The notes beneath the pieces are model-generated. The model did no database searches. It had not been told where the DNA came from and was given only the letters and a program-made list of their open reading frames with translations. A DNA stretch of 13,568 nucleotides, taken from the IMG/VR virus record IMGVR_UViG_3300037808_001901; one strand, given 5' to 3'. Positions 12,405 to 12,643 of the stretch are shown piece after piece (the stretch's first letter is position 1; each line of letters opens with the position of its first letter). The position numbers were made by a program, and so were the translations under genes. The stretch is from a virus.

Positions 12405-12478
12405 TAGCACTGGTCGGAGTCGAACCGACAAACACTTAGTTTTAAGCTAAGCCGCTTTGCCAATTAGCGTACAGTGCC
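12405..12478 (-). tRNA. type I (short variable arm) tRNA with anticodon TAA (Leu by anticodon)
   Basis: GGCACTG-TA-CGC-TAATTGGCAAA-GCG-G-CTTAG-CTTAAAA-CTAAG-TGTTT-GTCGG-TTCGACT-CCGAC-CAGTGCT-A. Canonical 74-nt cloverleaf, discriminator A. 5-nt variable loop, which is unusual for a Leu decoder. Confidence 0.6.
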
Positions 12479-12484
12479 AAAAAG

Positions 12485-12564
12485 TAGCCTTGGTGGGAGT
12501 CGAACCCACAAAATCACCAGATTCTAAATCTAGCCGCTTTGCCATTAGGTTTGCGTACAAGGCC
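12485..12564 (-). tRNA. type I tRNA with anticodon TAG (Leu by anticodon), long D-loop
   Basis: GGCCTTG-TA-CGC-AAACCTAATGGCAAA-GCG-G-CTAGA-TTTAGAA-TCTGG-TGATTTT-GTGGG-TTCGACT-CCCAC-CAAGGCT-A. 15-nt D-loop and 7-nt variable loop. Discriminator A. Confidence 0.5.
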
Positions 12565-12569
12565 ATAAG

Positions 12570-12643
12570 TAGCACAGGTCGGATTCGAACCGACAAACAC
12601 AAGTTTTTGAAACTTGCCGCTTTGCCAATTAGCGTACTGTGCC
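12570..12643 (-). tRNA. type I tRNA with anticodon CAA (Leu by anticodon)
   Basis: GGCACAG-TA-CGC-TAATTGGCAAA-GCG-G-CAAGT-TTCAAAA-ACTTG-TGTTT-GTCGG-TTCGAAT-CCGAC-CTGTGCT-A. Identical to the 12405-12478 gene except for the anticodon arm, one compensated acceptor pair and one T-loop base. Confidence 0.6.

Follow-up and report, generated by a model that had tools for sequence, protein, structure and literature searches.

Three putative type I tRNA-Leu genes of an uncultured large phage and the widespread scaffold family to which they belong

What is the function of phage tRNA genes which carry leucine anticodons but do not possess the long variable arm of class II tRNAs? This question is raised by three adjacent genes, here called A, B and C, in a stretch of 13,568 nucleotides from an uncultured large phage (IMG/VR record IMGVR_UViG_3300037808_001901; the whole stretch is referred to as the window). 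A preliminary description of the window had proposed three candidate roles for them: compact Leu tRNAs charged by leucyl-tRNA synthetase (LeuRS), tRNAs charged with another amino acid and hence involved in recoding or mistranslation, or nuclease-resistant decoys. Our analysis, which relies on sequence comparisons, supports the first of these roles. The restriction of the scaffold to Leu anticodons, the kept identity elements and the meaning of the Leu codons in phage genes make it likely that A, B and C are functional phage type I tRNA-Leu isoacceptors, which would be charged by the LeuRS of the host and serve normal Leu decoding. Their shape is unusual, their function is probably ordinary.

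All three genes are located on the minus strand at the positions already given in the preliminary description: gene A, a type I tRNA-Leu(UAA), at 12405..12478, gene B, a type I tRNA-Leu(UAG), at 12485..12564 and gene C, a type I tRNA-Leu(CAA), at 12570..12643. ARAGORN calls A and C as tRNA-Leu(taa) and tRNA-Leu(caa), and both match the Rfam tRNA model (62.1 and 61.9 bits, respectively). From an alignment of 40 family members, none of them from the window (alignment A2), we built the covariance model R1, on which A and C score 89.4 bits each and B, over its full length, 75.0 bits. With E-values of 1e-21 to 3e-26 for the three genes on a model containing no window sequence, a chance origin can be dismissed. 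The runners-up of R1 in the window are a long-arm tRNA-Leu(UAG) with 55.5 bits and a tRNA-Phe with 51.7 bits. The anticodon stem-loops had been quoted correctly, namely CUUAG-CUUAAAA-CUAAG for A, CUAGA-UUUAGAA-UCUGG for B and CAAGU-UUCAAAA-ACUUG for C. The resulting anticodons UAA, UAG and CAA occupy positions 34-36 of 7-nt loops on 5-bp stems, and all of them belong to the Leu boxes (YAA or NAG). As described before, the variable loops are short (UGUUU with 5 nt in A and C, UGAUUUU with 7 nt in B), so that none of the genes has the long arm of class II tRNAs, and the discriminator A73 is present in each of them. CCA is not encoded in A, B or C.

Beyond the discriminator, gene A exhibits G1.U72, A14 A15, G18G19 and U48, and G1.U72 was detected in B, C and the long-arm tRNA-Leu(UAG) at 12320-12400, too. 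The D-loop of A and C reads AAUUGGCAA, U48 is found directly 5' of the T-stem, and the T-loop is UUCGACU or UUCGAAU in the three genes. An A sits at the position numbered 20a in the window genes, the numbering being our own. A tertiary core of the Escherichia coli type, consisting of A14, A15:U48, G18G19 facing the UUCGA T-loop, and A20a, thus seems to be present as far as can be judged from sequence. LeuRS of E. coli depends on A73, A15:U48, G18G19 and A20a, whereas anticodon and long arm are dispensable (PMC9976931). Among 68 distinct short-arm Leu tRNAs we found A73 in 67, U48 in 67 and A14A15 in 59. The values for 36 long-arm Leu tRNAs are 36, 35 and 32, and those for 467 other class I tRNAs 55%, 32% and 28%, respectively. 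Hence, A73 and A15:U48 are kept as strictly in short-arm as in long-arm tRNA-Leu, measured by the element set of E. coli LeuRS, which may not be that of the host enzyme. Position 1:72 is G.U in 20 of the 40 family members and in 13 of 36 long-arm phage tRNA-Leu, and A-U in others. Therefore, U72 beside A73 is strongly preferred. G1.U72 has also been described in E. coli tRNA-Leu(UAA) (PMC6614811).

Public collections were searched with an anticodon-blind pattern, composed of D-loop motifs and motifs of the variable/T-stem region, in which the whole anticodon region was set to N. In viral contigs, all 12 matches to this pattern carried a Leu anticodon (CAA, UAA, UAG, CAG or GAG) at the fixed offset. 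A bacterial set with one genome per species yielded 37 matches. Five of these were clearly no tRNAs, a number close to the rough expectation of about 4 chance matches, and the 32 real tRNAs carried Leu anticodons without exception. Altogether, 44 of 44 real scaffold tRNAs from viral and bacterial contigs have Leu anticodons, and both the UUR and the CUN box are represented. As the anticodons of these two boxes are alike in nothing but leucine, their exclusive occurrence supports a Leu identity of the scaffold. These results point to an existing, widespread and Leu-specific family of phages and bacterial tRNA arrays and not to a local invention. The idea of a deliberate remodelling of one scaffold in this genome is not supported, since the family already exists in many phages and tRNA arrays.

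The same data bear on the second candidate role, in which a synthetase other than LeuRS would charge the scaffold and UUA, UUG and CUA would be read, fully or partly, as another amino acid. The shape of the genes is indeed atypical of bacterial tRNA-Leu, and a change at position 34 is all that separates UAA and CAA from GAA, the anticodon of tRNA-Phe. Class I tRNAs with Leu-box anticodons carrying other amino acids exist, e.g. the yeast mitochondrial tRNA-Thr(UAG). A raw similarity test, described below, did not favour Leu either. A foreign charging is, however, hard to reconcile with Leu anticodons from both codon boxes in all scaffold matches and with A73 and A15:U48 being kept as in long-arm tRNA-Leu. 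Furthermore, all three window genes have C:G at position 3:70, where the family shows C:G, U:A or G:C but never G:U; the G3:U70 element of alanyl-tRNA synthetase (AlaRS) is therefore absent from the window genes as well as from their relatives.

The codons themselves also argue for leucine. In the cobalamin adenosyltransferase gene of the window, 7 UUA/UUG codons fall into alignment columns with 53-98% Leu (47 distinct homologues). The relatives of this protein, which are 26-50% identical, were used only as alignment for the codon test; in their own loci, ARAGORN found almost no Leu tRNAs. In an open reading frame (ORF) of 896 amino acids (aa), 91-100% of the residues aligned with UUA, UUG and CUA are L/I/V/M/F, and CUU, CUC and CUG behave no differently. 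We found no hint of a reassignment of UUA, UUG or CUA in this small sample of 2 genes with 2 CUA codons, and the tests leave room for mistranslation at a low level. On balance, we regard a recoding or mistranslation role as most improbable, given anticodons restricted to Leu, the kept A73 and A15:U48 and codons standing at Leu or hydrophobic columns.

According to the preliminary description, the three genes share acceptor, D-arm and T-arm and differ by the replacement of the anticodon arm. This applies to A and C, while B has another acceptor, another D-arm and another T-stem. Of the 13 positions at which A and C differ, 10 belong to the anticodon arm with its 17 nt, whereas only 3 fall in the 57 nt outside this arm (Fisher p = 5.6e-6); in terms of stems, the acceptor differs at 1 of 7 pairs and the anticodon stem at 4 of 5. 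An arm swap between A and C as a peculiarity of this phage was nevertheless rejected as a general explanation, since free variation of the anticodon stem is seen in all parts of the family. Genes of the same locus with different anticodons show a body identity of 0.81 and an anticodon-stem identity of 0.37. The corresponding values for genes of different loci with the same anticodon are 0.79 and 0.45, and the family-wide ranges are 0.75-0.81 for the body and 0.37-0.45 for the anticodon stem. A conserved body combined with an unrelated, fully paired anticodon stem is the norm for the type I Leu family. One body may be found with varied anticodon arms because the body holds the identity and tertiary elements and the anticodon stem need only pair. 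The pattern fits a synthetase which recognises its substrate by the elbow and A73 and takes no account of the anticodon arm.

The cloverleaf of the family is strongly backed by alignment A2, in which 95.2% of the cells are paired and 15 of the 21 pairs change on both sides. None of 500 shuffles reached these values, and slid controls exhibited 30-44% pairing. Hardly any variation is seen in D-arm, variable loop and T-arm, in contrast to the acceptor and anticodon stems, which are free to vary. Against this background the contrast between A and C is still a real mosaic. The acceptor stems are equally free to vary, yet those of A and C differ at a single one of 7 pairs, and therefore a gene conversion between the tandem copies or an exchange of arms is likely. 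In locus L159, a viral cluster, the acceptor stem is common to all three paralogues.

Most of the bacterial matches were located in tRNA arrays of metagenome-assembled genomes from Planctomycetota, with 10-31 genes per 8 kb. The few matches from Actinomycetota represent the sole tRNA gene of the respective 8-kb locus and have the anticodon CAA; these copies appear to be single chromosomal tRNA-Leu(CAA) genes. In many of the Planctomycetota arrays (among L117-L152) most Leu isoacceptors are of type I, and the CAG isoacceptor retains the long arm in the arrays L117, L130, L133, L142 and L146-L149. Genes annotated as tRNA-Leu in cultured phages could be assigned to the family as well by means of BLAST and the family model, among them genes from Mycobacterium phage LeBron, Acinetobacter phage Acibel004, Streptomyces phages, Gordonia phage Sixama and Xanthomonas phage X1. 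The caa and tag genes of LeBron reached 85.1 and 82.5 bits on the family model.

Gene B deviates from this common type. Its acceptor strand is GGCCUUG compared to GGCACUG in A and C, its T-stem is GUGGG, and in its D-arm (UACGCAAACCUAAUGGCAAAGCG) A13 replaces U13 and a 4-nt insertion (ccua) results in a D-loop of 13 nt. B is not called by ARAGORN, and no Rfam tRNA match is reported for it even at E <= 10. It might therefore be that one or more of the genes, and B in particular, represent a decaying pseudogene or a tRNA-like decoy without decoding function. The failure of both tools and the large D-loop would be in line with such a fate, as would the degenerate tRNA-like pieces contained in the window at 10114-10153, 13117-13198 and 13299-13379. 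B folds, however, into a full cloverleaf in which every stem is paired (RNAfold and R1). In addition, a search with a pattern requiring the enlarged D-loop, followed by the family model on the contigs found, revealed B-type relatives in four other contigs (L158, L159, L162 and L163; two viral, two metagenome). These 12 further genes have variable loops of 7 nt (UGAUUUU or close) and D-loops of 9-13 nt, and the anticodons of the 13 B-type members are UAA, CAA, UAG, CAG or GAG only. Stem sequences vary among the members and the helices compared remain complementary. A strain nearly identical to the window cluster is represented by L163, which keeps the order C, B, A and carries one change each in C (position 20) and in B (position 26).

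Because the architecture and the Leu anticodons of B recur in 12 genes and the L163 copy differs only at position 26, B is a conserved variant and not a relic. A decoy role, as had been suggested for all three genes, would not explain why the anticodon always stays within the Leu set. We thus consider it very unlikely that B or its neighbours are pseudogenes or decoys. The L158 and L159 genes with a 3-4-nt insertion that were checked were not called by ARAGORN, either. Since neither ARAGORN nor the Rfam tRNA model detects the B-type subfamily, the tRNA complements of phages are under-counted.

Some observations weigh against A, B and C being Leu isoacceptors charged by the host LeuRS. When the similarity of D-arm and T-arm was determined against an unbiased phage tRNA set chosen via tRNA-Phe, Leu was not singled out, and Cys, Phe and Val rank as high as Leu. 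A previous nearest-isotype test with the D-arm had been discarded as circular, the loci having been selected with the D-loop motif. A scan for promoters and terminators revealed nothing above shuffled expectation. In the case of B, G18G19 is displaced relative to the D-stem by the 4-nt insertion, and the placement of G18G19 matters in E. coli tRNA-Leu. Moreover, A37 follows G36 in B (UUUAGAA) and in the long-arm tRNA-Leu(UAG) of the window (CUUAGAA) instead of the usual G37; bacterial tRNA-Leu reading CUN codons usually has G37, the site of m1G37. Finally, E. coli LeuRS fails to charge the type I tRNA-Leu(CAA) of Streptomyces coelicolor (PMC6614811), and therefore not every bacterial LeuRS accepts every type I tRNA-Leu.

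The equal rank of Cys, Phe and Val in the similarity test leads to the question of the origin of the family, which may have arisen from a class I tRNA of another isotype captured for leucine and not from a tRNA-Leu that lost its arm. The 4-bp D-stem of A and C with its U13-A22 pair would also agree with a captured tRNA. In most members of the family, however, the D-stem is of a class II-like type with 3 bp, pair 13:22 being unpaired in 38 of 40. A15:U48 and A73 correspond to tRNA-Leu, and the best non-family match of R1 is the long-arm tRNA-Leu(UAG), with a small margin over tRNA-Phe (55.5 versus 51.7 bits). That a true tRNA-Leu can lose its arm is indicated by the short phage tRNA-Leu of L098, L101 and L102, which retain the canonical tRNA-Leu D-arm UGGCGGAAUUGGUAUACGC. 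As some short tRNAs retain this D-arm, arm loss from true tRNA-Leu probably occurred more than once. We therefore doubt an origin by capture.

Directly downstream of A, at 12320..12400 on the minus strand, ARAGORN and Rfam detect the long-arm tRNA-Leu(UAG) with a variable arm of 12 nt. It has the same anticodon as B, and its anticodon arm CCAGA-CUUAGAA-UCUGG is one stem base and one loop base off that of B. Long and short forms sharing an anticodon thus coexist side by side in the window (UAG), and the same is true for the Streptomyces phage CeilingFan and for L094 and L111. In a sample of viral clusters chosen via tRNA-Phe, 6 of 25 tRNA-Leu had a short arm compared to none of 20 tRNA-Ser and none of 8 tRNA-Tyr. 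Both results would be understandable if the short arm were an anti-defence trait, that is, if these tRNAs were Leu acceptors evading a factor which recognises the class II arm or depletes or inactivates host tRNA-Leu, with both shapes being kept as insurance. This explanation is compatible with a function in normal Leu decoding because it concerns the reason for the short arm. Toxins depending on the variable arm exist (PMC11541572), and the restriction of the cluster to Ser, Leu, Tyr and Phe, which recurs in L158 and L159, could be taken as a further indication. On the other hand, neither our analysis nor the literature consulted for this question revealed a defence system targeting the variable arm of tRNA-Leu, and the toxin MenT3 prefers tRNA-Ser and discriminates against tRNA-Leu (PMC11541572). 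The loss of the arm could equally be neutral or a matter of economy, as LeuRS does not need the arm. The scaffold also occurs in the apparently single chromosomal tRNA-Leu(CAA) genes of Actinomycetota, where evasion of phage defence is no obvious pressure. An anti-defence trait is hence an unlikely, although conceivable, reason for the short arm. We are similarly sceptical about the wider assumption that phages and mobile arrays systematically carry armless tRNA-Leu in order to escape an arm-recognising toxin, nuclease or regulator, or to widen the range of usable LeuRS. If it were true, the long and short pairs with the same anticodon would represent bet-hedging and the length-variable D-loop of the B-type a further step of an arms race.

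For A, B and C as Leu isoacceptors the following course can be proposed. The spacers around the three genes comprise only 4-6 nt, and for this reason they may be transcribed along with the densely arranged tRNA cluster of the minus strand. The tRNAs would be released by RNase P and enzymes of 3' processing from the host and, as no CCA is encoded, the CCA-adding enzyme of the host would supply it. Host LeuRS would then leucylate A, B and C via A73 and the tertiary core (A15:U48, the contact of G18G19 with the T-loop, and A14) and not via anticodon or long arm. A is expected to read UUA/UUG, C to read UUG and B to read CUA/CUN. Together with the long-arm tRNA-Leu(UAG) and a long-arm tRNA-Leu(GAG) at 13208..13288 on the minus strand (ARAGORN, Rfam), the three genes allow each of the six Leu codons to be decoded. 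Of the 247 Leu codons in the ORFs of the window, 101 (41%) are UUA or UUG. In this way A, B and C would supply the phage with Leu decoding capacity. Within the genome, the tandem paralogues appear to have been homogenised or to have exchanged their arms.

The tRNA cluster extends from 11970 to 13553 on the minus strand and contains only four tRNA-Ser, five tRNA-Leu, one tRNA-Tyr and two tRNA-Phe genes plus uncalled tRNA-like elements. For the whole window, ARAGORN and Rfam arrive at 11 tRNAs each, with sets that agree only in part. The isotypes of the cluster are the three class II isotypes (Ser, Leu and Tyr) plus Phe, and the viral clusters L158 and L159 show a similarly restricted composition save for one odd 91-nt Thr(tgt) call. 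The cluster terminates at the end of the window. A 36.7-kb ENA contig carries the identical sequence, and a 196-kb JGI contig (3300072015) is recorded as having its genes in this order, too; contigs encoding the same protein are 99.98-100% identical to the window and supplied flanking sequence but no comparative signal. A Megablast search of the cluster against GenBank phages gave no match.

Several further tRNA-like elements were observed, all on the minus strand. A long-arm tRNA-Leu-like gene is located at 7760-7863 and overlaps the start of the ORF 7148-7798. It has the acceptor GCCCCUA/UAGGGGC, A73 and a D-arm like the other long-arm Leu genes, and matches the Rfam tRNA model with 47.2 bits, without a call by ARAGORN. 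Immediately 3' of UAA-G37, its anticodon loop is enlarged by some 22 inserted nt, which lie at or beside 37/38, the site of tRNA introns in archaea and eukaryotes. Two elements at 13117-13198 and 13299-13379 have CUGUAAA anticodon loops (GUA, Tyr) and lie near the called tRNA-Tyr at 13386-13466, which brings the GUA-anticodon elements of the cluster to three. Both are not called by ARAGORN and show weak matches to tRNA-Sec (about 23.6 bits); in the element at 13299-13379 pairing seems to take place between the D and the variable region. The spacers at 12644-12721 and 12250-12319 (70-78 nt) form folds whose ends are joined in a helix of 5-7 bp, which in the case of 12644-12721 is GGUGAAU/AUUCACC, with no recognisable T-arm. 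The first gene of the cluster, at 13481-13553, is called as tRNA-Phe(GAA), but reaches no more than 41.6 bits, and the structure assigned to it by ARAGORN is irregular. A second, canonical tRNA-Phe(GAA) with 72.3 bits is situated at 13039-13111. At 10114-10153, a lone tRNA 3' half consisting of the T-arm and the 3' acceptor strand (UGUGGGUUCGAGUCCCACCUUGGACA) is found among protein-coding ORFs; it is similar to the type I Leu family, on whose model it scores 21.7 bits.

Among the protein-coding genes, the 896-aa ORF used in the codon test (1799-4489, minus strand) contains shoulder and repeat domains of the major vault protein (Pfam E = 1.8e-22 and 3.2e-12). Its only matches in GenBank phages are LR756500, LR756501 and LR756503, uncultured huge phages of 462-735 kb, with 39% identity, and no relatives were detected in the viral contigs searched. 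Beside the cobalamin adenosyltransferase gene, a 64-aa ORF (10567-10761, minus strand) encodes an S4 RNA-binding domain and shows a weak match to the C-terminal domain of tyrosyl-tRNA synthetase (both Pfam).

Textbooks and one biochemical study (PMC6614811) treat short-arm tRNA-Leu of bacteria as a rarity of some Streptomyces. In the searches presented here, one and the same short-arm scaffold was frequently encountered, both in tRNA clusters of phages and in Planctomycetota arrays, and it covers all main Leu anticodons. Members of the family occur in cultured pairs of phage and host (LeBron and Mycobacterium smegmatis, Acibel004 and Acinetobacter baumannii, X1 and Xanthomonas). Two questions thereby become directly accessible to experiment, namely which LeuRS enzymes of bacteria accept a type I tRNA-Leu and what benefit it brings to a phage.

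The closest relatives known from cultured phages are the short tRNA-Leu genes of LeBron (caa, tag), Acibel004 (taa, tag), the Streptomyces phages Coruscant, Mandalore and CeilingFan, the Gordonia phage Sixama and the Xanthomonas phages X1 and BUDD, which share the scaffold. Their BLAST identity to gene A amounts to 72-84%, G1.U72 and A73 recur, and CeilingFan has an adjacent pair of a long and a short UAG tRNA as found in the window. The records of these phages label the genes plainly as tRNA-Leu. For the B-type with its enlarged D-loop there is no annotated counterpart among them. In a full-text literature search, with most papers of subscription journals outside its scope, no paper describing the phage family or its shape was found. 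A tRNA-Leu(TAG) with a short variable loop, unlike the normal chromosomal isoacceptor, has been mentioned for a tRNA cluster of the Mycobacterium mucogenicum group (Behra et al. 2019, PMC6582537). It is likewise a short-loop gene in an accessory tRNA cluster, the likeness being one of description and relating to a passing remark on one bacterial gene.

Among characterised tRNAs, the type I tRNA-Leu(CAA) of S. coelicolor comes closest; it is leucylated by the LeuRS of this organism (Fan et al. 2019, NAR, PMC6614811). It resembles the window genes in its Leu anticodon, its variable loop of 5 nt and the presence of long-arm tRNA-Leu in the same cell (in the window, in the same cluster). Compared by variable loop only, it has ACAGC and C48 whereas A and C have UGUUU and U48, and it is therefore probably not the same scaffold. 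Furthermore, S. coelicolor possesses a single chromosomal CAA isoacceptor, while three isoacceptors are present on the phage. Animal mitochondrial tRNA-Leu is of type I, too, has its identity determined by A73 and A14 and is charged without a long arm (PMC9976931). It differs in being organellar, with its own LeuRS and a loose tRNA structure, and is not charged by S. coelicolor LeuRS (PMC6614811). Engineered E. coli tRNA-Leu without variable and/or anticodon arm (Larkin et al. 2002 and Asahara et al. 1998, as summarized in PMC9976931) indicate, as far as this summary reports them, that long arm and anticodon are dispensable and that A73, A15:U48, G18G19, A20a and the contacts of D- and T-loop are needed. 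Those tRNAs are laboratory constructs whose charging efficiency may be reduced, whereas the genes of the window are natural and keep A73, A15, U48 and G18G19.

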